From: Actinomycetes bacterium
GTDB taxonomy: Bacteria; Actinomycetota; Acidimicrobiia; Spongiisociales; ZC4RG35
Direction of reading: 5' to 3'
DNA: 64,000 nt
Assembly (NCBI GenBank): GCA_003242515.2
Contig: QGUS02000003.1
Span: 12,647 to 76,646 of the forward strand
The notes below the pieces were generated by a model, which was not told where the DNA came from, ran no database searches, and saw only the letters and a program-made list of their open reading frames with translations. This document shows, one piece after another, positions 3,882 to 46,758 of this stretch. Position 1 is the first letter of the stretch, and each line of letters starts with the position of its first letter. A program made the translations under genes and the position numbers.

Positions 3882-4540
3882 GCGAGCCGGCGGAGGGCCT
3901 CCTCGGCGGCGCCCTGCTCCGCCTCTTTCTTGGAGCGGCCCTCGCCCCTGCCCATGACCTCGCCGTCGATGACAACTTCGGCCACGAACCAGCGGTCGTG
4001 GTCCGGCCCCGACCCCGTGACCTCGTAGGCCGGGCGCTTGCCGGCCTGGGCCAGCACCTCCTGGAGGCGGGTCTTGTAGTCCTTGATGCCCGGCTGGCGG
4101 GCCCGGTCCTCGATCCTCCCGCCCCAGAGGTCGAGGATCATCCGCCCGGCGACCTCCAGGCCTGCGTCCAGGTAGACGGCGCCGATCACGGCCTCCATGG
4201 CGTTGGCGAGTATCGAGTCCTTGCCCCGGCCACCGGAGCGCTCCTCGCTGGGCGACAGCTCCAGGTAGGCGCCGAGATCGATCGTCCTGGCGATCTCGGC
4301 GAGCGTGGGACGGCTGACCAGGGCGGCCCGGATCTTCGCCATCTGGCCCTCGGGGAACTGCGGGTAATCCTGGTAGAGGCGCTCGGTGATCACCAGCTGC
4401 AGCACGGCGTCACCGAGGAACTCGAGGCGCTCGTTGTCGGCCCGGCCGGGGTCGTCTGCGCTGACGGAGCGATGGGTGAGTGCGAGTAGCAGGAGGTCCC
4501 GGTCGGCGAAGGTGTGGCCGAGCCGGGCTTCGATGCTCAT
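3872..4540 (-). CDS. rnc: Ribonuclease III
   Basis: ALTHRS...NERLEFLGDAVL RNase III signature plus a C-terminal dsRNA-binding domain (GEGRSKKEAEQGAA). Confidence 0.93.
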   Translation of the reverse strand: MSIEARLGHTFADRDLLLLALTHRSVSADDPGRADNERLEFLGDAVLQLVITERLYQDYPQFPEGQMAKIRAALVSRPTLAEIARTIDLGAYLELSPSEERSGGRGKDSILANAMEAVIGAVYLDAGLEVAGRMILDLWGGRIEDRARQPGIKDYKTRLQEVLAQAGKRPAYEVTGSGPDHDRWFVAEVVIDGEVMGRGEGRSKKEAEQGAAEEALRRLAQS

Positions 4541-5505
4541 ACGAGGCGAGCCGCGATCTTCCCGGGGAGGTCCCGCTCCGCGGCCTCCGCGGCAACCTGG
4601 AGCGCGTTGGCGATCGCCACCCGGCTCGACGAGCCGTGGCCGATCACCGCGACGCCCTTCACGCCGAGCAGCTGGGCGCCTCCATGGGTCTCCGGGTCGA
4701 GACGGTGCCGCACCTCGTTGAGGGCGGGCAGCACCTGGGCCCTGACCTCGGGCGGGAGCTTGGAGATCGCCTCCTGGAAGTACCCGCCGACGAGCTTGGC
4801 GGCGCCCTCGGTGGTCTTGAGGAAGACGTTGCCGACGAAGCCGTCCGTCACCACCACGTCGCAGCGGTCGGCGGCGACGTCACGCCCCTCGACGTTGCCG
4901 ATGAAGTTGAGGCCGCTCGCCTCCAGGATCTCATGGGCCGTCTTCTCCAGCTCGCGGCCCTTGCCCTTCTCCTCGCCGATGTTGAGCAGGCCGATGCGGG
5001 GGCGCTCCACGCCGAGGATCAGCTCCGCCGCGACCGATCCCATGACGGCGAACTGGAGGAGCTGGTTGGCGTTCACCTCGGGGTTGGCCCCTGAGTCGAG
5101 GACGAGCGTGGGGGTGCCGGGTGTCGGGAAGATCGTGGCGATGGCCGGACGCTGCACGCCCTTGATGCGGCCGACGAGGAGCGCCGCCGCGGCCATGGCC
5201 GCACCGGTGGAACCGGCGCCCACGAAGCCGGCGGCGTCGCCCGAGGCGACCATTCGGGCGCAGACCGAGATGGAGGCGTTGGGCTTCTCCCGGAGCGCAC
5301 GCGCCGGGTCCTCGCCCATCTCGATGACTTCGGGCGCGTCGACGACGGGGAGGTCGGCCTCGAGCCGCTCCAGCTCGGACCGGACGATGGACTCGGGACC
5401 GACGAGGACGACATCGACCCCGCGACGCGCCGCATCGACCGCACCGGCGACGGTCTCTGCGGGGGCGTGATCGCCCCCCATGGCGTCGAGGGCGATTCGG
5501 GCCAA
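4537..5505 (-). CDS. plsX: Phosphate acyltransferase PlsX
   Basis: MARIALDAMGGDHAP N-terminus and overall PlsX-like sequence. 4-nt overlap with rnc. Sits downstream of rpmF, as in many bacteria. Confidence 0.9.
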   Translation of the reverse strand: MARIALDAMGGDHAPAETVAGAVDAARRGVDVVLVGPESIVRSELERLEADLPVVDAPEVIEMGEDPARALREKPNASISVCARMVASGDAAGFVGAGSTGAAMAAAALLVGRIKGVQRPAIATIFPTPGTPTLVLDSGANPEVNANQLLQFAVMGSVAAELILGVERPRIGLLNIGEEKGKGRELEKTAHEILEASGLNFIGNVEGRDVAADRCDVVVTDGFVGNVFLKTTEGAAKLVGGYFQEAISKLPPEVRAQVLPALNEVRHRLDPETHGGAQLLGVKGVAVIGHGSSSRVAIANALQVAAEAAERDLPGKIAARLV

Positions 5506-11015: not shown

Positions 11016-12086
11016 TCAACCCAGCTTGGAGGCGATAGCCCCCGCACTGCGGAGGGCGGTGCCATCGCTGCCCGCGGTGGAGAACACCCGGGCGGGGGTG
11101 GCCAGTGCCTCCGCGAGCATGTCCTCGAACAGCTGCCTCCTGCCCAGGGGCGGATCGATCCAGAGGTACGCGGCCATCGAGCCCGGGATCGTGTTCACCT
11201 CGTTGACGAAGACCTCGCCGCCCTGGCAGAGGAAATCGATGCGCGCCACGCCGCGCAGACCCGCCGCGGACGCCACCCGGCGGGCGTACTCCCGTATGCG
11301 GGCCTCCAGCTCGGGCTCGAGCTGTGCCGGCAGCTGGCGGCCTCCGCTCACCTCGCCACCCCACGCCAGGTACTTCTGGTCGTAGCTGTAGATGCCGCCC
11401 TCGGGACGGATCGGCTCCTCGATGGCCGACAGCTCCAGCTTCGGGTGGGTGCGCACCGCGATCTGGATGTCACGGCTCCCCTCGAGGAACGGCTCGACGA
11501 CGGCGCCCTGCTTCATGAACGGCGAGGTGCGCCAGAGGGCCACGACCGTGTCCCAGTCCTCCACCACCTCGATCCCGATGGACGAGCCGCCGAAGCGGGG
11601 CTTGACGATGTACGGGCCGCCGAACGGGGCGGTCACCCCCTCCCCCACGAGCGTCCGCGGCAGCGTCGGCAGGCCGACCGCGGCCATGGCGGCGCCGAAG
11701 GCCAGCTTGTCCATGCCGAGGGCGGACGCCGCCTGACCCGGCCCCGTGTAGCGCAGACCGGCCAGGTCCATGAGCCCCTGGAGGGTGCCGTCCTCGCCCG
11801 GCCCGCCGTGGCAGGCGTTGATCACGGCCGTGGGCGCCATCGGCTTCTTCTTGAGCACGAAGCCGCGTCCCGGGGAGGCCTCGAAGGTCAGCTCACGGGC
11901 CTTGCGGGGCACGCCGTCCGCGAAGTCGGCGGCCTCGAGCCCCGGGTCGACCAGGTACCACTCGCCGGACTTGGTCCAGTAGACGCAGTCGACGTCACCG
12001 AGGGCCCGGGCGACCTGGAGCCCGGTGAGGATCGAGATGTCGTGTTCGTCGGATGGACCGCCGAAGACCACCAGGGGGCGGCTCAT
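11016..12086 (-). CDS. ddl: D-alanine--D-alanine ligase (ATP-grasp)
   Basis: ATG at 12086 is preceded by GGAGGG. MSRPLVVFGGPSDEHDISILTG N-terminus and ATP-grasp core. The track ORF extends 48 codons too far upstream. Confidence 0.85.
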   Translation of the reverse strand: MSRPLVVFGGPSDEHDISILTGLQVARALGDVDCVYWTKSGEWYLVDPGLEAADFADGVPRKARELTFEASPGRGFVLKKKPMAPTAVINACHGGPGEDGTLQGLMDLAGLRYTGPGQAASALGMDKLAFGAAMAAVGLPTLPRTLVGEGVTAPFGGPYIVKPRFGGSSIGIEVVEDWDTVVALWRTSPFMKQGAVVEPFLEGSRDIQIAVRTHPKLELSAIEEPIRPEGGIYSYDQKYLAWGGEVSGGRQLPAQLEPELEARIREYARRVASAAGLRGVARIDFLCQGGEVFVNEVNTIPGSMAAYLWIDPPLGRRQLFEDMLAEALATPARVFSTAGSDGTALRSAGAIASKLG

Positions 12087-12099
12087 CTTCCCTCCATCG

Positions 12100-13581
12100 T
12101 CATGGGTAGTGATCGGGTAGGTCGTTCTCGTACAGAACCGCGTCGCCGGGCCCGAGGTTCTGCCTGGCCCACTCGACGGCCTGTTCTCTGGTGGCGACGA
12201 CGGTAACCGACGCCCGGCCCTTAGCCGCACCCCGCAGCAGCGCGGCCCGGTTGGTGCGGCCCACTATGACCAGGTGGTCTGCCACCTGTGCGGCGGCCGC
12301 GGCGAACGCCTCGTTCTCCTCGGCCTGGCGGGGACCCAGCTCCACCATGCCGGGGGTCACCACGGCCTTCGTGCCGCCCATGCCCGACAGGAGGTCGAGG
12401 GCGCGTCTCGCGCCGGCGGGGTTGGAGTTGAAGGTGTCGTCGATGATCACAAAGCCGGCCTCCCCCACCGACACCGTCTGGCGGTGCGGGGTCGCGGGCA
12501 GGGCGCCGACGCGGCGGGCGATGTCCTCCGGTGACATGCCGAGGGCGAGGCAGATGCCGGCAGCCACTGCCAGGTTGGCGGCGAACGCATCCGCCGACAC
12601 CTCGGCGACCTCGCTGCCGTCGATGATCAGCTTCCCGCCGGTGACCCGGACCCTCCCGGCGTCGCCGGTGGAGACCTCGACGATCTCCTGGCGCCCTGAC
12701 CGCTCCCGGGCGAGGGCGGCGAGGAGGGGGGTGTCGACGCAGATCACCCCGACCCGGGCCCCGTCGAGGATCTCCGACTTGGCGGCGACGATCCGCTCCT
12801 CCGAGCCGAACCGCTCCAGGTGGACCGGGCCGATCGAGACGATCGCCGCCACCTCGGGCTTCACCCAGGAGCACATGTCGGCGATCTCCCCCGGGCCGTA
12901 GGTGCCCATCTCGGCGACGAAGAGCTCGGTCCCCGGGGCTAGGTTCTCGTTGATGGAGCGGGCGAGGCCGAGGCGGTTGTTGAAAGAGGCGGGGGTGGCG
13001 ACGGTCCGCATCGCCGCGGACGCGATGTGCGCGGTGTAGGCCTTGGTGGTCGTCTTGCCGTACGAGCCCGTGATGGCGACGACCCGGGGCGAGACCGACT
13101 CCAGCCGGGACCGGGCCTGCCGGACCCACTTCTCGCCGAGGGCCCGCTCCAGCGGCGCCATCACCAACAGGCCGATGTCGACCAGGACCGGCATGAGCAG
13201 GACGGCCGACGACGCGGGCAGTGCCGTGTCCGCGGCCAGCCCGACCGACAGCAGCACGAGGAAGACGACGCCCACGAAGGCGGCGAGGCGGCGGAGGCGA
13301 GGCGTGAAGGCGAGCCTGGAGGTCCGCCCCCGGATCCCCAGCCCGACGGGCCCGATCTGGGCGGCCGCCACGCCGAGGGCGGCCCAGCCCCAGGCGGCCG
13401 CGGTGGCGTCGGAGAGGACGGCGAGGGCGAGGAGGGCCGTGTTGACCGAGGTGGTGAGCCACCAGCGGAGGGCGAACCGGGTCACCACAGGCAGGTAGTG
13501 CTCCCGCTGGGCGACGCGGAGCCAGCGGAGCCCGGCGGCGACACCGGCGACGAGCAGGGCGGCGGATACGACCCGGATCAC
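12100..13581 (-). CDS. Mur ligase family protein (MurF-like) with an N-terminal multi-TM domain
   Basis: GTG at 13581 overlaps the hydrolase stop. The first 145 aa or so are hydrophobic helices, followed by GSYGKTTTK (P-loop) and DDTFNSNPAGA (MurF-type DxYNxNP). Confidence 0.8.
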   Translation of the reverse strand: MIRVVSAALLVAGVAAGLRWLRVAQREHYLPVVTRFALRWWLTTSVNTALLALAVLSDATAAAWGWAALGVAAAQIGPVGLGIRGRTSRLAFTPRLRRLAAFVGVVFLVLLSVGLAADTALPASSAVLLMPVLVDIGLLVMAPLERALGEKWVRQARSRLESVSPRVVAITGSYGKTTTKAYTAHIASAAMRTVATPASFNNRLGLARSINENLAPGTELFVAEMGTYGPGEIADMCSWVKPEVAAIVSIGPVHLERFGSEERIVAAKSEILDGARVGVICVDTPLLAALARERSGRQEIVEVSTGDAGRVRVTGGKLIIDGSEVAEVSADAFAANLAVAAGICLALGMSPEDIARRVGALPATPHRQTVSVGEAGFVIIDDTFNSNPAGARRALDLLSGMGGTKAVVTPGMVELGPRQAEENEAFAAAAAQVADHLVIVGRTNRAALLRGAAKGRASVTVVATREQAVEWARQNLGPGDAVLYENDLPDHYP

Positions 13582-14321
13582 GGGACCCGCTCCATGACCG
13601 CGGCGCGGAGGCGGTCGGGCACCTCGATCGGGAGCATGTGGCCCACGCCATCGACCACCTCGAGGGAGACCGGCAGACCGGCCTCCTCCCGGATGGCGAG
13701 GGCCCGGCGGGCCACTTCGACGGGGACTTCCCGGTCGTTCCCGCCCCAGAGGAGGTGGACCGGCGCCGGCGCCTGCGCCAGCTCGGCCTCGTAGGTCTCG
13801 GCGATCACCTTGACGAGGATGTCACGCATGATCCCGGTGGCGGCCCGGTAGTCCGCGGAGCCGCTGCGGCGCCGCCTCCGCTCCATGGCCTCGTCGGAGA
13901 CGACCCCGATCCGGTTGGCCAGGCGCATCAGCCGGTACGAGAGGGGCGGTCTGCGGGCCGGCCTGAGGCGGAGCAGCGGGACCCCGGTGAGGACGATCCC
14001 GGCGACGGCCTCGGGGTGGTTCACGGCGAGCCGCATCGCCACCCTCCCGCCGAAGGAGTGTCCCACCACGAGGACGGGCGCGTCGAGGTCGTCGAGCATC
14101 CGCTCGACCACGCGCGCGTACCCTTCGGCTCCGATGACCTCCTGCGGTGCGGGAGACGCCCCGAAGCCCGGCAGATCCGGTGCGACGGCCGGCAGACCCG
14201 CCAGAGCCTTCGTGAAGTCGGCCCCCCGGCGGCCCCAGCCGTGCAGTGCGAGGATGCGTGGCACCCCCTCACCGAGGACCTCGGCGAAGAGGGCACCGTC
14301 AGCGAACGACCTCAGTGCCAA
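13578..14321 (-). CDS. Alpha/beta hydrolase
   Basis: ILALHGWGRRG and the GHSFGG nucleophile elbow. Start chosen at TTG 14321, after GAGGA. The longer track ORF (to 14414) would overlap the kinase gene. Confidence 0.7.
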   Translation of the reverse strand: MALRSFADGALFAEVLGEGVPRILALHGWGRRGADFTKALAGLPAVAPDLPGFGASPAPQEVIGAEGYARVVERMLDDLDAPVLVVGHSFGGRVAMRLAVNHPEAVAGIVLTGVPLLRLRPARRPPLSYRLMRLANRIGVVSDEAMERRRRRSGSADYRAATGIMRDILVKVIAETYEAELAQAPAPVHLLWGGNDREVPVEVARRALAIREEAGLPVSLEVVDGVGHMLPIEVPDRLRAAVMERVP

Positions 14322-17419: not shown

Positions 17420-18706
17420 GTGAGACGCGTCGCGGCGCTCGTCGTCCTCCTCGCCGCCTGCTCCGGAGCCGGCCCCGTCACCACGGGCACGACCGCGCCA
17501 CCGGCGGCGCCGACCACCACCGCCGCACCGGGGACCACCACCACGACCGGCCCCGCCGAGCTGGGCCCCGTCGTCTTCGCCTTCCTCGGCCCCGACGGGC
17601 TCGTCCTCGGCGATGGGGAGGTCCTGCTCCCCGGGCCCATCGAGGGCCGGCACGCCCTGGCGCGGGACCACGCGGGTGGTGTCGCGTACCTGGCCGAAGG
17701 CGTCCTCTGGTGGCTCCCTGCGGGCGCCACCGAGCCCAGCGAGGTGGGCGCCGCCCCTGGGGACGCCCTGGTCGAGGTGGTGCCGACGGATTCCGGTCCG
17801 GTGGCGCGGCTCGGCGTCTGCCCGTCCCGGTTCGTCTCCCTGGCCGACGGCTCGGAGGTCGCAGAGCCCGATCGGGTTGCAGTCGAGGTCGACTGCGGCG
17901 ACCCGGCCCTCGACCGGGCCACCCGGCGGGCCGCCAATGGCCTGGCCGTCGAGATCGCCGGGCCCGACAGCGACGGCCTCCCCCAGACGCTCGAGGTCAC
18001 GCAGGACGGCGCCATCGTCGTCTCGATCCCGGTCGGCGGCTTCTACGAGGACCGGGCACGCATCCACGACTTCGACGGGCGCGCCGTGATCGTCTCCAGG
18101 GGCACCGCCGACCAGCACGTGCCGGAGACCTTCTTCGTCATCGACCTGGCGTCCGGCGACCTGGTGCGCTGGAGCGAGGGCGTCCACACCCAGGCCGCTC
18201 TGCTGACGCCGGACGTCACGACGGTCCCCCCTGTCCCGGAAGAAGTGGTCCACGCCGTCTACAGGGGGACCCCTCTCCGCACCGACGACCTGATCGCATC
18301 CCTCGAAGACGGGGTCTACGCCGGGTACGTCGACTATGCCGCCACCTCGGGCCTCACCGGAGGGCCGGAGATCCATCTCGACCTGATCGTCTGGTTCATG
18401 GGCCGGGAAGCCGGGTACGCCGCCACCGAGGACGGCGAGGAGTGGCCACCCGGCGACTTCTACGTCCGCAACGAAGACCCGACCCAGATCGTGCTGCCGG
18501 TGTCACCCGACGTCGAGGTCACCTCGGTCTGGTTCCACTACGACGCGACGCAGCAGCTCGAGAACCGGCCGATCACCTATGAGGAGTTCGTCACGGCAAT
18601 GACCGGTGAGCCCGTCGGGGCGGAGATGAACATGCTCTCCGACCCCTGGTGGGTCACCGTCCGGGACGGCCGGGTCGTCGCCATCCACGAGCAGTACGTG
18701 CCCTAG
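17420..18706 (+). CDS. Secreted lipoprotein of unknown function
   Basis: GTG start. Signal peptide with lipobox VLLAAC, then a Thr/Pro-rich linker and a globular region of about 380 aa. Confidence 0.7.
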   Translation: MRRVAALVVLLAACSGAGPVTTGTTAPPAAPTTTAAPGTTTTTGPAELGPVVFAFLGPDGLVLGDGEVLLPGPIEGRHALARDHAGGVAYLAEGVLWWLPAGATEPSEVGAAPGDALVEVVPTDSGPVARLGVCPSRFVSLADGSEVAEPDRVAVEVDCGDPALDRATRRAANGLAVEIAGPDSDGLPQTLEVTQDGAIVVSIPVGGFYEDRARIHDFDGRAVIVSRGTADQHVPETFFVIDLASGDLVRWSEGVHTQAALLTPDVTTVPPVPEEVVHAVYRGTPLRTDDLIASLEDGVYAGYVDYAATSGLTGGPEIHLDLIVWFMGREAGYAATEDGEEWPPGDFYVRNEDPTQIVLPVSPDVEVTSVWFHYDATQQLENRPITYEEFVTAMTGEPVGAEMNMLSDPWWVTVRDGRVVAIHEQYVP

Positions 18707-18831: not shown

Positions 18832-20439
18832 TCAGGCCTGGTCGAGGAGGAGGTCGGCGTACTGGTCGCGCACGACCTTCTTGTCGAACTTCCCGGTGCC
18901 GGTCTTCGGAATGGCCTCGATGAAGACGATCCTGTCCGGGAGCCACCAGGAGGCGACCCGACCTTCGAGGTGCTTGCGGAGCTCCTCCTCGGTGACCTCG
19001 CCCTTCCTGACCACGAAGGCCACCGGGCGCTCCTGCCACTTCGGGTGCTTGAGGCCGACCACCGTGGCCTCGGCCACGGCCGGATGGGCCATCAGCTCGT
19101 TCTCCAGGTCCAGCGAGGAGATCCACTCGCCACCGGACTTGATCACGTCCTTGGCCCGGTCGGTGATCCGGATGTAGCCCTCCGGGGTGATCTTGCAGAC
19201 GTCACCCGTGCGCATCCAACCGTCGACGAACGACTGGGCGGAGCGGTCGTCCTTGTAGTACTCACCGGCGATCCACGGGCCGCGGATCAGCAGCTCGCCG
19301 AACGCCTCGCCGTCGTGCGGGAGCTCCTCTCCCACCTCGTCGACGATCTTCACCTGCAGGCCGAAGACCGGGATGCCGGCCGTCTCGAGACGATCGAGCT
19401 GGTCCTCCAGCGGCCAGTCCTCCATGTGCGGCTTGAGCACGGCGACCGACGCGACCGGATTGGTCTCGGTCATGCCCCATCCCTGGATGATCCGGATCCC
19501 CTGAGCCTTCCAGAACCACTCGATCAGGGCCCGGGGGACGGCGGAGCCGCCGCACAGGAAGGCCCGGATCGACGACAGCCTGACATCGGGGTTCGCCTCC
19601 AGGTACTGCTTGATCCCCAGCCAGACCGTGGGGACACCGGCGCTGAAGGTCACGTTCTCCTCGGTGAACAGCTTCACCAGCCCCTGCGGCGAGAGGTCCG
19701 GTCCCGGGTAGGTGAGCTTGACGCCCCGGGTCACCGCCATGAACGGGTAGCCCCAGGCGGCGGCGTGGAACATCGGGACGACGGGCAGGACGTTGTCCGT
19801 CGGCTCGATGGGGAAGTTCGCCATGTTGTGGACGGTGTGGAGGTAGGTCGACCGCTGGGTGTATGCGACGCCCTTGGGGTTCCCCGTGGTGCCCGACGAG
19901 TAGCAGAGCATCATCGGCGACCGCTCGTCGAGCATCGGCCACTGCCCGTGCTCGGGCTGGTCGGCGATCAGGTCCTCGTAGGCGATGGAGCCGGGCAGGT
20001 CGTCGGATGCCTCCGGGCCCATGACCACCCAGTGCTTCACCGTCTCCATCTTCGAGGCGATCGGGGCGAGCAGCGGGACCAGGTCGGGGTCGACGAACAT
20101 CGCCTCGTCACCGGCGTGGTTGGCGACGTAGACGATCTGGTCGGCGAAGAGGCGGATGTTGATGGTGTGGCAGATCCGTCCGGTGTTGGCCGTCGCCCAG
20201 TAGAGCTCGTGGTGGCGGATGTTGTTCCAGGCGAAGGTACCCACTGCGGCGCCGCGCTCCAGGCCGAGGGCGTCGAACGCCGACGCGAGCCTGCGGACGC
20301 GATGGTCCGTCTCGGCGTAGGTGGTGCGGGTGATGGAGCGGTCGGCCTCGACCGACACGATCTCGGCGTCGGGGTGGATCCACACCGCGTGGTCGTAGAG
20401 CGTGGAGAGCAGGAGCGGGAAATCCATCATGTGGGGCAT
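18832..20439 (-). CDS. Long/medium-chain fatty-acid--CoA ligase (AMP-dependent synthetase)
   Basis: YSSGTTGNPKGV AMP-binding motif. 535 aa. GGGAGGA lies 5 nt upstream of the ATG. Confidence 0.85.
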   Translation of the reverse strand: MPHMMDFPLLLSTLYDHAVWIHPDAEIVSVEADRSITRTTYAETDHRVRRLASAFDALGLERGAAVGTFAWNNIRHHELYWATANTGRICHTINIRLFADQIVYVANHAGDEAMFVDPDLVPLLAPIASKMETVKHWVVMGPEASDDLPGSIAYEDLIADQPEHGQWPMLDERSPMMLCYSSGTTGNPKGVAYTQRSTYLHTVHNMANFPIEPTDNVLPVVPMFHAAAWGYPFMAVTRGVKLTYPGPDLSPQGLVKLFTEENVTFSAGVPTVWLGIKQYLEANPDVRLSSIRAFLCGGSAVPRALIEWFWKAQGIRIIQGWGMTETNPVASVAVLKPHMEDWPLEDQLDRLETAGIPVFGLQVKIVDEVGEELPHDGEAFGELLIRGPWIAGEYYKDDRSAQSFVDGWMRTGDVCKITPEGYIRITDRAKDVIKSGGEWISSLDLENELMAHPAVAEATVVGLKHPKWQERPVAFVVRKGEVTEEELRKHLEGRVASWWLPDRIVFIEAIPKTGTGKFDKKVVRDQYADLLLDQA

Positions 20440-20789
20440 CGAATCCTCCCTGCTGGTCGAAGACGCGCGGGAGGTTACGCGAGCAACCGGCGGGGTGGCC
20501 TGCCGACCGGCATCTTTTCCGCACCGCCCCCCATGCGCATCGGTGCCGCTCCGGCGGCAACTTCATCCGGACCGTCGGCCGCATCCGTCCTCCACGGAGT
20601 CGGGCCTTCCGGAGAGCTCCCGGGCTCCCCGTTCCCGGCGCTCCCCCTCCGCCCGGAAACGGGGGTCCGCTCGGAGCGCTGCTCCCCTGCCGACTTCGCC
20701 GCCACGCGTCGGGGGCACGACGAGGCGGCTCACGACCTGGTGGGAACCACCCCCGGCCCGTGGGGACGGAGGGCGGCTCCCGCGGAACG

Positions 20790-21128
20790 AGGGAGAAAAG
20801 AGAAACCCCGAGGGAGCCTCGGCCGAAGCCTCAACCCTCTCGGGGCTCTCTTGCCGCGCTTCGTCGGGCCGGGGACCCGAATCCGAGCGGACTCTCTTGC
20901 CACCGGCCGAAGCCGACGGCGGGTGCGGCCCGAGGGCCGCCGTTCCCGTTGCCGGGAACTGGTACAGGCCCGAAGGCCTGTTGCCGTTCGTCGGTGACGA
21001 TCCCGAAGGATCCCCGCCGAGCGATCGGCCATCCGAACGCTGCGGGCCGAAGCCCGGCTGCGATTCGGGAAACCTTCACGGACGGTCTCCCGCCCGATCC
21101 GGTGTCTCCGGGTTTCCCCTTCGACGTG
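20790..21128 (-). ncRNA. Candidate structured RNA, unit 2 (about 340 nt), minus strand
   Basis: Bounded by the promoter-like hexamers at 21163-21135 and the terminator-like repeat at 20850-20795. It contains hairpins with UUCG (5 copies including the repeat) and GCAA loops when read on the minus strand. Ends and strand are inferred, not measured. Confidence 0.3.
20795..20850 (-). repeat. 56-nt repeat copy A, terminator-like on the minus strand
   Basis: 54 of 56 nt identical to 21305-21360. Minus strand reads CCCCGAGAGGG..GGCUUCGGCC..CCCUCGGGG followed by UUUCUCUUUUCUCCC. Confidence 0.6.
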
Positions 21129-21134
21129 ACCGGA

Positions 21135-21163
21135 AAGTTACGCCACCAGGTGGGGTGGCACAA
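21135..21163 (-). promoter_or_regulatory. Sigma70-like promoter candidate for unit 2 (TTGTGC-17 nt-TAACTT on the minus strand)
   Basis: The hexamers sit at exactly the same offsets (331 bp shift) as the stronger promoter candidate of unit 1. Confidence 0.3.
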
Positions 21164-21180
21164 GCGGATTCGGCACTTGT

Positions 21181-21208
21181 TTTTCGCGAGCTGCGAGGAG
21201 TTTTCGCG
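21181..21208. promoter_or_regulatory. Pair of TTTTCGCG boxes, 20-bp centre spacing (module 2)
   Basis: TTTTCGCG at 21181-21188 and 21201-21208. The pair ends 17 nt upstream (minus-strand sense) of the -35 candidate. Confidence 0.35.
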
Positions 21209-21302
21209 CTCTGTGTACTCGAAGAACAGCACGAGACCTCTCGCGGCCCGGCGGGAGCCACCCCCACATCTCCACACGCTTCGCTTGGGGAAGGGCAGGG
21301 TG

Positions 21303-21459
21303 CGGAAATGAGAAACCCCGAGGGAGCCTCGGCCGAAGCCTCAGCCCTCTCGGGGCTCTCGGTGTCGTCTCTCCCGGGGAAAGCGGGCCCCCCGTTCGAG
21401 GCGACTGGTCTCCGGGGCCGAAGCCCCTTCGACGGTGACCGGGGCGAACCCCGTTCACG
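21303..21459 (-). ncRNA. Candidate structured small RNA, unit 1 (about 155 nt), minus strand
   Basis: Runs from just downstream of the TATGTT -10 (21471-21466) to the U-tract after repeat copy B. It has a 5' hairpin GUGAACGGGG-UUCG-CCCCGGUCAC, a long hairpin capped by GGGGC-UUCG-GCCCC, and a terminator hairpin. Confidence 0.35.
21305..21360 (-). repeat. 56-nt repeat copy B, terminator-like on the minus strand
   Basis: 54 of 56 nt identical to 20795-20850. On the minus strand it is followed by UUUCUCAUUUCC. Confidence 0.6.
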
Positions 21460-21465
21460 GCACGA

Positions 21466-21494
21466 AACATATGGGTCCCCTCCCGAGCCGTCAA
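21466..21494 (-). promoter_or_regulatory. Sigma70-like promoter candidate for unit 1 (TTGACG-17 nt-TATGTT on the minus strand)
   Basis: The reverse complement of 21489-21494 is TTGACG and that of 21466-21471 is TATGTT. The spacer is exactly 17 nt. Confidence 0.4.
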
Positions 21495-21511
21495 CCGGGA
21501 CCGCTCGCGAC

Positions 21512-21539
21512 TTTTCGCGGCTTGTCACGAATTTTCGCG
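21512..21539. promoter_or_regulatory. Pair of TTTTCGCG boxes, 20-bp centre spacing (module 1)
   Basis: TTTTCGCG at 21512-21519 and 21532-21539. Both are exactly 331 bp from the module 2 boxes, and 17 nt from the -35 candidate. Confidence 0.35.
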
Positions 21540-21565
21540 ACCGGTTTCTGTCCCACCCCCTACCT

Positions 21566-22384
21566 ATGATCGCCACCATGACCGCGACCGCGGCACAGGC
21601 CGTCCCGCTGCGACTCGAGAACCTCTCGCCCAGCCGGGCCGGCGACTTCAAGACCTGCCCCCAGCTCTTCAAGTTCCGGGCCATCGATCGCATCCCCGAG
21701 CCCGTGACCATCCATCAGGCGCGGGGCACCACGGCGCACCTTGCGCTGCAGCGTCTCTTCGACCTCCCCCGCACCAACCGCACCCCGGACACCCTGTTCG
21801 ACCTCTTCAGGCAGGCGTGGACCGAGATCCGGGGCGACGAGGAGTTCACCGGGCTCTTCCCGTCGGTCGAGGAGGAGCGCGCCTGGGGGATCGAGTCCCT
21901 CGGCCTCCTCGCCAACTACTTCGCCATCGAGGACCCGGCCACCTTCGAGCCGGTCGCCCGCGAGCTGGACATGACCGAGCAATTGGGCGACATAGTGATC
22001 CGGGGGATCCTCGACCGGATGGACCGCCGGCCCGACGGGGCGCTGGTGATCACCGACTACAAGACCGGCAAGGCGCCACCCGAGTCGTACGCCCTCCCCG
22101 CCTTCTTCGCCCTCAAGATCTACGCCCTGCTCATCCGGAACCGTCTCGGCGAGACCCCGGCGGAGTTGCGGCTCCTCTACCTGAACGGGCCGACCATGTA
22201 CACGCTGCCCGTCGACGACCGGCAGCTCGACGGCATGGAGAGCCAGCTGCGCGCCCTGTGGTCGGCCATCGACCGGGCGCTGGCCTCGGGCAACTTCCCG
22301 CCCCGGCCGGGGACCCTGTGCAACTGGTGCTCCTACCGGGACATGTGCCCGGCCTGGGTCGAGCCCCCGACCGAGTCGGTCTAG
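21566..22384 (+). CDS. PD-(D/E)XK nuclease, RecB-family exonuclease / Cas4-like with Fe-S cysteines
   Basis: ATG at 21566 (MIATMTATAAQ...). FKTCPQLFKF, GILDRMD, VITDYKTGK (D..D/ExK core) and C-terminal CNWCSYRDMCPAW. Codon usage changes sharply to high GC3 at this ATG. Confidence 0.8.
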   Translation: MIATMTATAAQAVPLRLENLSPSRAGDFKTCPQLFKFRAIDRIPEPVTIHQARGTTAHLALQRLFDLPRTNRTPDTLFDLFRQAWTEIRGDEEFTGLFPSVEEERAWGIESLGLLANYFAIEDPATFEPVARELDMTEQLGDIVIRGILDRMDRRPDGALVITDYKTGKAPPESYALPAFFALKIYALLIRNRLGETPAELRLLYLNGPTMYTLPVDDRQLDGMESQLRALWSAIDRALASGNFPPRPGTLCNWCSYRDMCPAWVEPPTESV

Positions 22385-45542: not shown

Positions 45543-46189
45543 GCGGCTACGAGGTCACGTCGCGCAACAAGGTGAGGCGGCTGGAGGGCCGGGCCCACTA
45601 CGACCGGGAGACGGTCCATGCCGTCCTGGACGCCGCACTCGTCTGCCATGTCGGGATCGTCCGGGAGGAGGGCCCGCTGGTGGTGCCGACCATCTTCGGC
45701 CGGATCGACGACACGGTCTACTTCCACGGCTCGGTGGCGTCGGGGAACCTCCGGGCGATGCGGGCGGGTACCGAGGTCTGCGTGGCGGCGACCGTCGTCG
45801 ACGGCATCGTCCTGGCCCGGTCGCTCTTCAACAGCTCGATGAACTACCAGTCGGTGGTCGCCTTCGGACGGTCGCGCCAGGTGAGCGACCCCGGGGAGCG
45901 TGAGGCCGCGTTGAAGGCCATCTCGGACCACGTCCTGCCGGGCCGGTGGGAGGACGCCCGGCGGCCCGACCACACCGAGGACCTCCAGACGGCGGTGGTG
46001 GCCGTCGACATCGAGCAGGCGTCGGCGAAGGTGCGTGACTGGGGCGTCGGGGATGAGCCCGAGGAGGACCTCGAGCTGGACGTCTGGGCCGGGGTCCTCC
46101 CGCTCCGCATGGTCACGGGCGAGCCGCAGCCTGACCCGAAGCTGAGGCCGGGGATCGAAGTGCCCGGCTACGTACGGGACCGGGAGTAG
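45539..46189 (+). CDS. Pyridoxamine 5'-phosphate oxidase family (flavin-binding split barrel) protein
   Basis: ATG overlaps the upstream stop (ATGA). RNKVRRLEGRAHYDRETVHAVLD...PTIFGRIDDTVYFHGS is typical of the Pyridox_ox_2 family. Confidence 0.7.
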   Translation: MSGYEVTSRNKVRRLEGRAHYDRETVHAVLDAALVCHVGIVREEGPLVVPTIFGRIDDTVYFHGSVASGNLRAMRAGTEVCVAATVVDGIVLARSLFNSSMNYQSVVAFGRSRQVSDPGEREAALKAISDHVLPGRWEDARRPDHTEDLQTAVVAVDIEQASAKVRDWGVGDEPEEDLELDVWAGVLPLRMVTGEPQPDPKLRPGIEVPGYVRDRE

Positions 46190-46758
46190 CGGGGCTCGAT
46201 CCCCGCCGCCTCCGCCAGGGTCCGCACCCAGTCGGCCATCGAGTCGATCGTGACGTGGGCATTGAGCCCGCTGGGGTTGGGGCCGACCCACAGCTCCGCC
46301 CCGGCGAGGTCCTCGGGCTGGCGACCCATCACCGCCCCGGGGCGATCGAACGCGGTGCGATAGGCCGTGACGCCGAGGATGGCAACCACCTTCGGGCCGA
46401 TGGAGGCGACCCGATCGGTGAGCCGGGTCGCTCCCGCCCTCAGGTCGTCGGCGGAGAGCTCGTCGGCGCGGGCCGTGGCGTGCTCGACGATGTTGGTGAT
46501 GCCGATGCCCGCCGCCACGAGGTCGGCCCGCTGGGCGTCGGTGAGCCCGGTGGACGCGTCCAGGTCCCAGTCGACGATGCCGGCTCGACGCAGCGCCGGG
46601 TAGAAGCGGTTGGACGGGTGGCAGAAGTGGGTCTGACGCGCCGCGGTCATCAGCCCGGGGTTGATCCCGACGAAGAGGAGACGCGTGCCGTCACCGACCA
46701 GGTCGGGCACGGTGCGACCGCGATGGGCCTCCAGCTCCTCCCGGGTCAGCCGGGCCAC
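46168..46758 (-). CDS. mug: G/U mismatch-specific DNA glycosylase (Mug/TDG family)
   Basis: LLFVGINPGL...HPSNRFY motifs. Confidence 0.8.
   Translation of the reverse strand: MARLTREELEAHRGRTVPDLVGDGTRLLFVGINPGLMTAARQTHFCHPSNRFYPALRRAGIVDWDLDASTGLTDAQRADLVAAGIGITNIVEHATARADELSADDLRAGATRLTDRVASIGPKVVAILGVTAYRTAFDRPGAVMGRQPEDLAGAELWVGPNPSGLNAHVTIDSMADWVRTLAEAAGIEPRYSRSRT

Follow-up and report, generated by a model that had tools for sequence, protein, structure and literature searches.

What is encoded in a gene-free gap of 1.1 kb (20440–21565) in the genome of an Acidimicrobiia bacterium, where the public gene calls for the same strain place no gene? The gap lies in a 64-kb stretch of contig QGUS02000003.1 (64,000 nt, G+C content 70.6%), hereafter the window, to which all coordinates refer, and is bordered by an acyl-CoA ligase gene and a nuclease gene. 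It holds two neighbouring units on the minus strand, a short one (unit 1) and a long one (unit 2), which are very probably real structured RNA genes and which form a class-wide and apparently undescribed family. The original prediction, made from the letters of the window, had described two diverged copies of one RNA family on the strength of paired segments at 21099–21440. That interval falls far short of the full feature, which covers about 20800–21539, and two diverged RNA genes of one family are borne out, with lengths of about 150 and 330 nt.

Orthologues of unit 1 were found in more than 50 species loci, and full-length nhmmer matches to unit 2 were likewise obtained in more than 50 loci, where its length ranges from 330 to 450 nt. 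The covariance model of unit 1 (R1) gives unit 1 of the window 122.5 bits, and the folding z-score of unit 2 against shuffled sequence is -6.5. Alignments were built from sequence alone with MAFFT, so the covariation counts are conservative. The unit 1 alignment (A1) contains 41 sequences and 50 pairs, and the unit 2 alignment (A2) contains 43 sequences and 93 curated pairs in 12 helices. Standard pairs are formed by 94.2% of the cells in unit 1 and 88.7% in unit 2, versus 38–66% and 33–50%, respectively, when the partners are slid by 1–3 columns; the unit 2 structure was partly drawn from the same sequences, which favours it against the slid controls and leaves the double-sided changes unaffected. 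Both sides have changed in 27 of the 50 unit 1 pairs and in 51 of the 93 unit 2 pairs. Counted by cell, double-sided changes number 127 in unit 1 (36 +/- 6.5 in shuffles) and 349 in unit 2 (137 +/- 12 in shuffles), and none of 500 shuffles reaches the observed value in either case. G.U cells outnumber A.C cells by 306 to 42 in unit 1 and by 479 to 97 in unit 2, or about 5–7 to 1, indicating that the minus strand is the RNA. Compensatory changes thus exceed those of the controls, and G.U is tolerated where A.C is not, which is the pattern of a structured RNA under selection for base pairing.

Evidence of coding was sought in the same alignments. Gap runs are not multiples of three in 310 of 326 cases in unit 1 and in 889 of 1074 in unit 2, the variability shows no periodicity of three bases, and in many orthologues all frames contain stops. 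Many homologues carry compensatory changes and no reading frame is kept, which upholds the earlier argument that selection has acted on RNA structure and not on protein.

A scan of all column pairs of these sequence-based alignments, in which a weak helix could be missed, revealed no convincing long-range helix, suggesting that each RNA is a chain of local hairpins. The number of hairpins differs between lineages. The long RNA grows by hairpin duplication, as seen in a tandem copy of its 5' hairpin (L062) and a duplicated Hg (L054), and three unit 2 orthologues (L041, L057 and L061) carry 3–5 extra GAUCUUCGGAUC hairpins. Most hairpins are kept as structure while their sequences and loop classes drift. 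In the 5' hairpin of unit 2, for example, pair 10-29 is CG in 18 sequences and UA in 18. The loop of HP1 is GNRA in 33 of the 41 orthologues, UNCG in six (the window included) and of another kind in two, and that of H6 is divided among UNCG (16), GNRA (17) and other loops (10). Other hairpins are more uniform: UNCG caps HP2 in 35 of 41 sequences, the unit 2 5' hairpin ends in GNRA in 35 (UNCG in three and CUUG in two), H4 has GAAA in 35 of 43 orthologues, and HP2, H5, Hg and the apex of the 3' module almost always end in cUUCGg. The exchange of tetraloop classes on a kept helix is genuine among orthologues.

A few parts are kept as sequence instead. These are the 3' module, a nearly invariant stretch of 51 nt which closes both units, and three apexes, one in the short RNA (GGGGGCCCGCUUUCC) and two in the long RNA (CGGGGAUCCUUCGGGAUCGUC and GGGUCCCCGGCCCGA). 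The 3' modules are 87–90% identical pairwise (90% on average across species for unit 1) and the apexes 93–97%, against 56–72% for the covarying hairpins, and this constancy holds although most nucleotides of the 3' modules and apexes are base-paired. In the 3' module of unit 2, 9 of the 15 outer pairs never vary. Because paired helix and cores stay constant while nearby helices drift, they are candidates for parts that are read by a partner. Both 3' modules (21310–21360 and 20800–20850) also have an A.C mismatch in mid-helix, the A of CGAGAGGG standing opposite a C; where the module reads CUUUCUCGGGG the mismatch turns into A-U, so the position behaves as paired. The apex CCGGGGGCCC of the short RNA (21378–21392) is complementary over 10 bp to the apex GGGUCCCCGG of the long RNA (20864–20878), and the predicted duplex has an energy of -24.2 kcal/mol versus -14.0 +/- 3.2 in shuffles, 3 of 1000 shuffles being as good. 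Each of the complementary apexes is, however, largely taken up by its own stem, and the natural variant seen in L013, L022 and L078 has no compensating change.

The two units demonstrably share their promoter design and the 3' module. The terminator repeat noted from the sequence is confirmed as 56 nt of 96% identity at 20795–20850 and 21305–21360, 510 nt apart. After GAGAGGG in the module, a C in unit 1 and a U in unit 2 are diagnostic in nearly all species, and the persistence of this difference points to an old duplication without ongoing homogenisation of the copies. Over the final 157 nt of unit 2, the unit 1 covariance model gives an end-to-end alignment of 70 bits. That the unit 2 body is itself homologous to unit 1 was also considered and was rejected, since the best match drops to 9.5 bits once the 3' module is taken out, on a level with the 7.2 bits obtained on the reverse strand; without the module the two units keep only a similar order of hairpins.

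The original prediction had rested on resemblance between the 5' segments. The first segment, at 21440–21408 on the minus strand, indeed reads GGUCACCGUCGAAGGGGCUUCGGCCCCGGAGAC, and the second is present as GGUCACGUCGAAGGGGAAACCCGGAGAC at 21131–21104, one nucleotide away from the end coordinate first given. The two fold alike, as GUC-GAA-(G/C stem)-tetraloop-(stem)-GGA-GAC, the tetraloop being UUCG in the first and GAAA in the second, and their resemblance is above chance (alignment score 9 versus a mean of -6.7, standard deviation 3.25, in the same comparison across 35 genomes). As a family-level relationship it was rejected: HP2 is no closer to the unit 2 5' hairpin of its own genome than to those of other genomes (permutation p 0.87, 35 genomes), so that paralogy of the 5' segments is not supported; the tetraloop exchange holds among orthologues. 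The resemblance is a derived state of the lineage of the window and L001. What HP2 and the unit 2 5' hairpin share widely is a purine internal loop. The motif GAAGG...C[CU]GGA is present in 29 of 41 HP2 hairpins, and the corresponding R-A-N/G-G-A loop of the unit 2 orthologues is less constant. Internal loops of the 5'GGA/3'AAG type form three sheared G.A pairs and are stable, which we take as a lead only. Two further elements of the 5' argument had to be given up. The presumed 22-nt insertion (21458–21435) is HP1, a conserved hairpin present in 41 of 41 aligned unit 1 orthologues with covariation in 8 of 8 pairs, and GGUCAC, described as a conserved flank, is the 3' arm of HP1 in unit 1 and the unpaired 5' end in unit 2, so the two copies are not equivalent.

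Upstream of both units lie paired CGCGAAAA boxes, spaced about 20 nt, before each promoter. The box occurs four times in the window, always upstream of the two units, with 0.59 copies expected by chance. Related loci (617 kb) contain 262 copies, of which 202 precede a detected unit by less than 160 nt, and among 56 unit 2 orthologues at least two boxes were found in 41 and at least one in 50. A promoter of the form TTGNNN-17/18-TANNNT precedes 45 of 52 unit 1 orthologues, with TTGACG as the -35 hexamer in 40 of those 45, and 50 of 56 unit 2 orthologues, with TACTTT as the -10 hexamer in 30. The unit 1 promoter was the sole promoter-like site called by the consensus scan of 20400–21900, and the 5' end of unit 1 was placed from its -10 hexamer (+/-3 nt). 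The predicted parts of both units are listed in Table 1.

Table 1. Predicted parts of the two RNA units and the genes that border the gap (window coordinates).
Feature	Position	Strand	Evidence or description
Unit 1 distal CGCGAAAA box	21532–21539	minus	Box counts in window and related loci
Unit 1 proximal CGCGAAAA box	21512–21519	minus	Box counts; ends 17 nt before -35 hexamer
Unit 1 promoter, sigma-70-type, TTGACG-17-TATGTT	21466–21494	minus	Consensus scan
Unit 1 RNA, about 150 nt, four hairpins	21310–21460	minus	Orthologues, covariance model, covariation
HP1, GUGAACGGGG-UUCG-CCCCGGUCAC	21435–21458	minus	8/8 pairs covary
HP2, GUC-GAA-GGGGC-UUCG-GCCCC-GGA-GAC	21408–21433	minus	7/8 pairs covary; 3x3 purine internal loop
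HP3	21364–21405	minus	Outer stem covaries (helices 3 and 4)
HP3 invariant apex GGGGGCCCGCUUUCC	21378–21392	minus	95% identical pairwise
Unit 1 3' module, terminator-like hairpin GAGAGCCCCGAGAGGGCUGAGGCUUCGGCCGAGGCUCCCUCGGGGUUUCUC	21310–21360	minus	Repeat, terminator scan, identity
Unit 2 CGCGAAAA boxes	21201–21208 and 21181–21188	minus	Box counts in window
Unit 2 promoter, sigma-70-type, TTGTGC-17-TAACTT	21135–21163	minus	Read from sequence
Unit 2 RNA, about 330 nt, about eleven hairpins	20800–21129	minus	Folding, nhmmer, covariation
Unit 2 5' hairpin, GUC-GAA-GGG-GAAA-CCC-GGA-GAC	21104–21125	minus	Covariation, loop counts
H4	21033–21067	minus	Alignment, loop counts; UUCG-type loop in window
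H5, long hairpin	20983–21030	minus	Three outer pairs with 21, 13 and 14 double changes
H5 invariant core CGGGGAUCCUUCGGGAUCGUC	20996–21016	minus	97% identical pairwise
H6	20964–20981	minus	7/7 pairs covary; 97% of cells paired
H7, GNRA loop	20942–20959	minus	6/6 pairs covary
Hf, cUNCGg cap	20925–20940	minus	5/6 pairs covary
Hg, cUNCGg cap	20899–20920	minus	7/9 pairs covary
Hh	20854–20890	minus	7/14 pairs covary
Hh invariant core GGGUCCCCGGCCCGA	20864–20878	minus	93% identical pairwise
Unit 2 3' module, as in unit 1 with GGGU for GGGC	20800–20850	minus	Repeat, terminator scan, alignment
AMP-binding acyl-CoA ligase gene	18832–20439	minus	One flank of gap
PD-(D/E)XK (RecB/Cas4-like; PDDEXK_1) nuclease gene, 272 amino acids	21566–22384	plus	Other flank of gap

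A set of 80 species loci was retrieved with the nuclease as an RNA-independent anchor. A protein search aimed at the distribution beyond Acidimicrobiia yielded relatives of at least 70% identity only. The nearest nuclease relatives in the species-level genome collection are all Acidimicrobiia metagenome-assembled genomes. The units were sought in these loci by blastn, nhmmer and the covariance model. Two 3' modules were found in 64 loci, three in one, one in 11 and none in four. In most of the 11 loci with one module, either the contig breaks off within the locus or the covariance model detects a second unit; of the four loci without a module, three are on truncated contigs and the fourth (L055) is intact. 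Both units stand upstream of the nuclease gene in nearly all loci, and at least 65 of the 80 carry two or more units. The conserved order is ligase, unit 2, unit 1, nuclease, glutamate dehydrogenase (GDH) and AdnAB-like helicase. Scanning metagenomes for the 3' module pattern yielded 117 stretches, from which 80 loci were kept. The same synteny is present in 71 of these; eight are on contigs too short to judge and one is a chance match inside a coding region. This shared synteny indicates that the family lives at this one locus. A 15-mer scan of viral contigs for a phage or viral origin returned seven chance matches and no RNA, and blastn against plasmid and phage collections gave no match to the RNA units.

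Between lineages, the units change orientation with respect to both neighbouring genes. Unit 1 alone is inverted in L043, and one or both units are on the nuclease strand in eight further loci (L051, L060, L063, L071, L072, L074, L079 and L080). In the divergent loci L063, L071 and L074 both units are short and on the nuclease strand, and one has an H5-type core, GGGGACCUUCGGGUCGUCGAG, in place of HP3. This divergent layout leaves the boxed promoter, the hairpin chain and the 3' module as the universal features of the family. The sequence downstream of the terminators is not conserved among related loci. Together, the conserved promoters, the gene-specific boxes, the orientation flips and the unconserved sequence past the terminators argue that the units are independent transcription units. 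Their own promoters, non-coding bodies, terminator-like ends and conservation independent of the neighbours, as predicted from the sequence, are the marks of stand-alone small RNA (sRNA) genes.

The reading that we favour, with a confidence slightly better than even, is that the gap holds two adjacent, independently transcribed noncoding RNA genes of one Acidimicrobiia-wide family, which act in trans and carry a handle for a partner. The mechanism itself, trans action through partner binding, is put forward tentatively. Both RNAs would be made as discrete, stable transcripts. The invariant 3' module would act as a terminator and, in addition, as the handle by which a partner common to both RNAs, most likely a protein, recognises or stabilises them. 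RNA-specific contacts may come from the invariant apexes, the variable hairpins may be rigid, nuclease-resistant spacers, and the common upstream CGCGAAAA boxes would co-regulate both genes. Several points weigh against this reading. The ends, abundance and stability of the RNAs are predicted from the DNA sequence, and the locus has no linked gene for an RNA-binding protein. The 3' module might be invariant for a different reason, for instance because it contains a site that acts at the DNA level or because termination here has special demands. G-rich mRNA sites would, moreover, be suitable pairing partners for the C-rich apical loops. Finally, the intact 8.7-kb locus L055 (nuclease at 4001–4750) has no unit and no CGCGAAAA box, and at least one related lineage therefore appears to lack the RNA pair.

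If the apexes pair with RNA, the two units would be base-pairing riboregulators, whose C-rich loops bind G-rich, Shine-Dalgarno-like mRNA sites (compare 6C RNA, and RsaE/RoxS of Firmicutes) and whose other hairpins are protective. The apexes are invariant, C-rich and exposed in hairpins (CCCGCU in HP3 and UCCCCGG in Hh), base-pairing sRNAs often occur as tandem paralogues with shared ends, and 6C, a known sRNA of Actinomycetota, acts by pairing of C-rich loops. To our knowledge, this phylum has no Hfq or classical sRNA chaperone. However, a body of 330–450 nt with at least 10 covarying hairpins is unusual for a seed-type sRNA, and pairing with mRNA would not explain why the 3' module and the H5 core, both paired, are invariant. 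A scan of 680 kb for complements of the motifs returned only the antisense of the RNA genes themselves, in a set too small to exclude targets. We consider riboregulation by base pairing rather unlikely.

The long RNA could also be the Acidimicrobiia counterpart of 6S/Ms1, an abundant binder of RNA polymerase, with the short RNA as its partner or a second isoform. Its size of 330–450 nt is similar to that of Ms1, its promoter is strong-looking and conserved with A-rich upstream boxes, and its conservation is class-wide; the text of a survey of Ms1 does not mention Acidimicrobiia (PMC9130861). Against this, neither the window nor 16 orthologous loci gave an Rfam match, the supported helices are all local with no closing long-range helix or central bubble found, and Ms1 is accompanied by HAD-IB hydrolase (phosphoserine phosphatase) and oxidoreductase genes (PMC9130861), neither of which flanks the present units. 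We regard this identity as improbable. A broader speculation, to which we likewise give little credence, is that the 3' module and the CGCGAAAA-box promoter belong to a dedicated RNA-protein system of the Hfq-less Acidimicrobiia, in which a putative protein would read the module on both RNAs. In one version RNA polymerase would be the partner and the long RNA a structurally new 6S/Ms1 analogue, and the short and long RNAs might interact through their complementary apexes.

A cis-acting leader or attenuator of a flanking gene was also weighed. In the window this gene would be the acyl-CoA ligase gene, which lies 360 nt downstream of unit 2 on the same strand, and in L063 and L071 the units are co-oriented with the nuclease gene and directly upstream of it. 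However, the gene that the units face varies by lineage, the inversion in L043 concerns unit 1 alone, a strong terminator-like hairpin closes each unit with an unconserved spacer beyond it, the spacing of unit 2 and the ligase gene varies among loci between about 85 and about 1300 nt, and no riboswitch family was matched. The orientation changes and the lack of anything conserved past the terminators argue against a cis-acting leader, which we hold to be very improbable. A WhiB7-type leader was considered in view of the A-rich boxes and the adnAB neighbourhood and was rejected, as no WhiB open reading frame (ORF) lies downstream. That the region is no RNA gene at all, and is instead protein-coding, a REP-type DNA repeat or a mobile-element remnant, is scarcely credible: mechanical ORFs of 100–211 amino acids do overlap the RNA region and GC-rich palindromes are many, but the gap lengths, the absence of 3-base periodicity, the stops in all frames, the empty public gene calls, the strand-specific excess of G.U over A.C and the confinement to a single locus without a phage or plasmid match all speak against it.

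Past the nuclease gene, the window encodes GDH and then a UvrD/PD-(D/E)XK helicase-nuclease (AdnAB-like). A 35-nt repeat of 77% identity is present at 20720–20754 and 21231–21265, about 75 nt downstream of each terminator. It has the same 510-nt period as the 3' modules, the post-terminator stretches are not conserved in other genomes, and the repeat may have been left by a local duplication or conversion event in the lineage of the window. A weak match to the unit 1 covariance model at 46119–46243 on the minus strand (18.3 bits, E 0.011) lies inside coding sequence and was taken as noise. Further from the gap, two overlapping ORFs on the minus strand (11016–13821) contain Mur-ligase M/C domains (12100–13821) and D-Ala-D-Ala-ligase/ATP-grasp domains (11016–12263), together the set of a cyanophycin-synthetase-like enzyme; they may belong to a single gene that a frameshift, or the choice of start codons, has divided. 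On the plus strand, an ORF of 428 amino acids (17420–18706) shows good codon bias and no Pfam or NCBIfam match, and its tblastn matches are in the six closest loci only.

Acidimicrobiia are abundant in soils, sediments and sea water, and almost nothing is known of their RNA biology. An RNA gene pair that occupies one locus across the class and is missing from Rfam provides an entry point to it. The long RNA, with 330–450 nt, more than 10 covarying helices and invariant islands, is a new orphan structured RNA to characterise. The candidate shared 3' handle could lead to an unknown RNA-binding protein, the highly specific promoter box (CGCGAAAA, present twice) could define a small regulon, and the hairpins offer a clean natural example of tetraloop classes exchanged on conserved helices.

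Comparison with known families places the pair close to several and within none of them. No Rfam 15 family reached its gathering threshold in the 64-kb window or the 16 orthologous loci; a relaxed search (E up to 10) of 20400–21900 returned Transposase-2 alone (18 bits, E 0.9), which was dismissed as noise. Searches of the literature turned up no account of these RNAs. The nearest known RNA in host and style is 6C RNA (RF01066; B11 in Mycobacterium tuberculosis), an Actinomycetota small RNA with consecutive hairpins, C-rich apical loops and an intrinsic terminator, in an Hfq-less host and of a size near that of unit 1. A 6C RNA is defined by two hairpins whose loops each have a run of at least six C. 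The loops of the present RNAs have runs of 3–4 C (CCCGCU in HP3; CCC/UCCCCGG in Hh), not six or more, and their other loops are UNCG or GNRA. In addition, they show no match to the 6C covariance model even at E up to 10, lie at another locus, and form two paralogues with a shared invariant 3' module, one of which is much longer.

In size and stand-alone status the nearest known RNAs are Ms1 and 6S, which are likewise medium-sized (Ms1 about 300 nt), structured, conserved over a large clade and expressed from a stand-alone gene with a strong promoter. Unlike those of Ms1, the flanks here are acyl-CoA ligase, PDDEXK_1 nuclease, GDH and UvrD/PDDEXK helicase genes, and no Rfam 6S match was obtained. 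A 6S RNA proper was rejected, because all 93 supported pairs are in local hairpins and do not form a rod closed by 5'/3' pairing with a central bubble, and because the scan of the sequence-based alignments, in which a weak helix could be missed, gave no convincing long-range helix. The raiA motif also occurs in Acidimicrobiia, where it lies between raiA and comFC and has a P1–P8 fold with two pseudoknots (PMC10861870); it was rejected on its different neighbours, its other fold and the lack of an Rfam match. More generally, the pair resembles raiA motif, OLE, ROOL and GOLLD RNAs in exceeding 200–300 nt and in having many covarying helices, invariant islands, clade-wide conservation and an orphan function. 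It differs from them in matching none of their models and in the build of unit 2, which has local hairpins only, in varying number.

Riboswitches and cis leaders occupy a fixed co-oriented position and offer a platform for read-through; here orientation, adjacent gene and spacer all vary, and this class was rejected. The CsrB/RsmZ-type sponges are also chains of local hairpins whose number varies by lineage and which grow by hairpin duplication. In contrast to the sponges, no repeated loop motif is present here, and the free swapping of loop classes makes the loops unlikely to be binding sites. We know of no CsrA-type partner in this phylum. The layout has its closest analogues in OmrA/OmrB, PrrF1/PrrF2, GlmY/GlmZ and Qrr, sibling RNA genes with divergent bodies. 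These are proteobacterial, mostly Hfq-dependent and about 80–200 nt long, whereas the members here differ twofold in length and have no sequence or structure relation to them. What they have in common with the Acidimicrobiia pair is the sharing of promoter elements and 3' ends between siblings, an arrangement that in such sRNA pairs implies co-regulation and a shared 3' binding partner.

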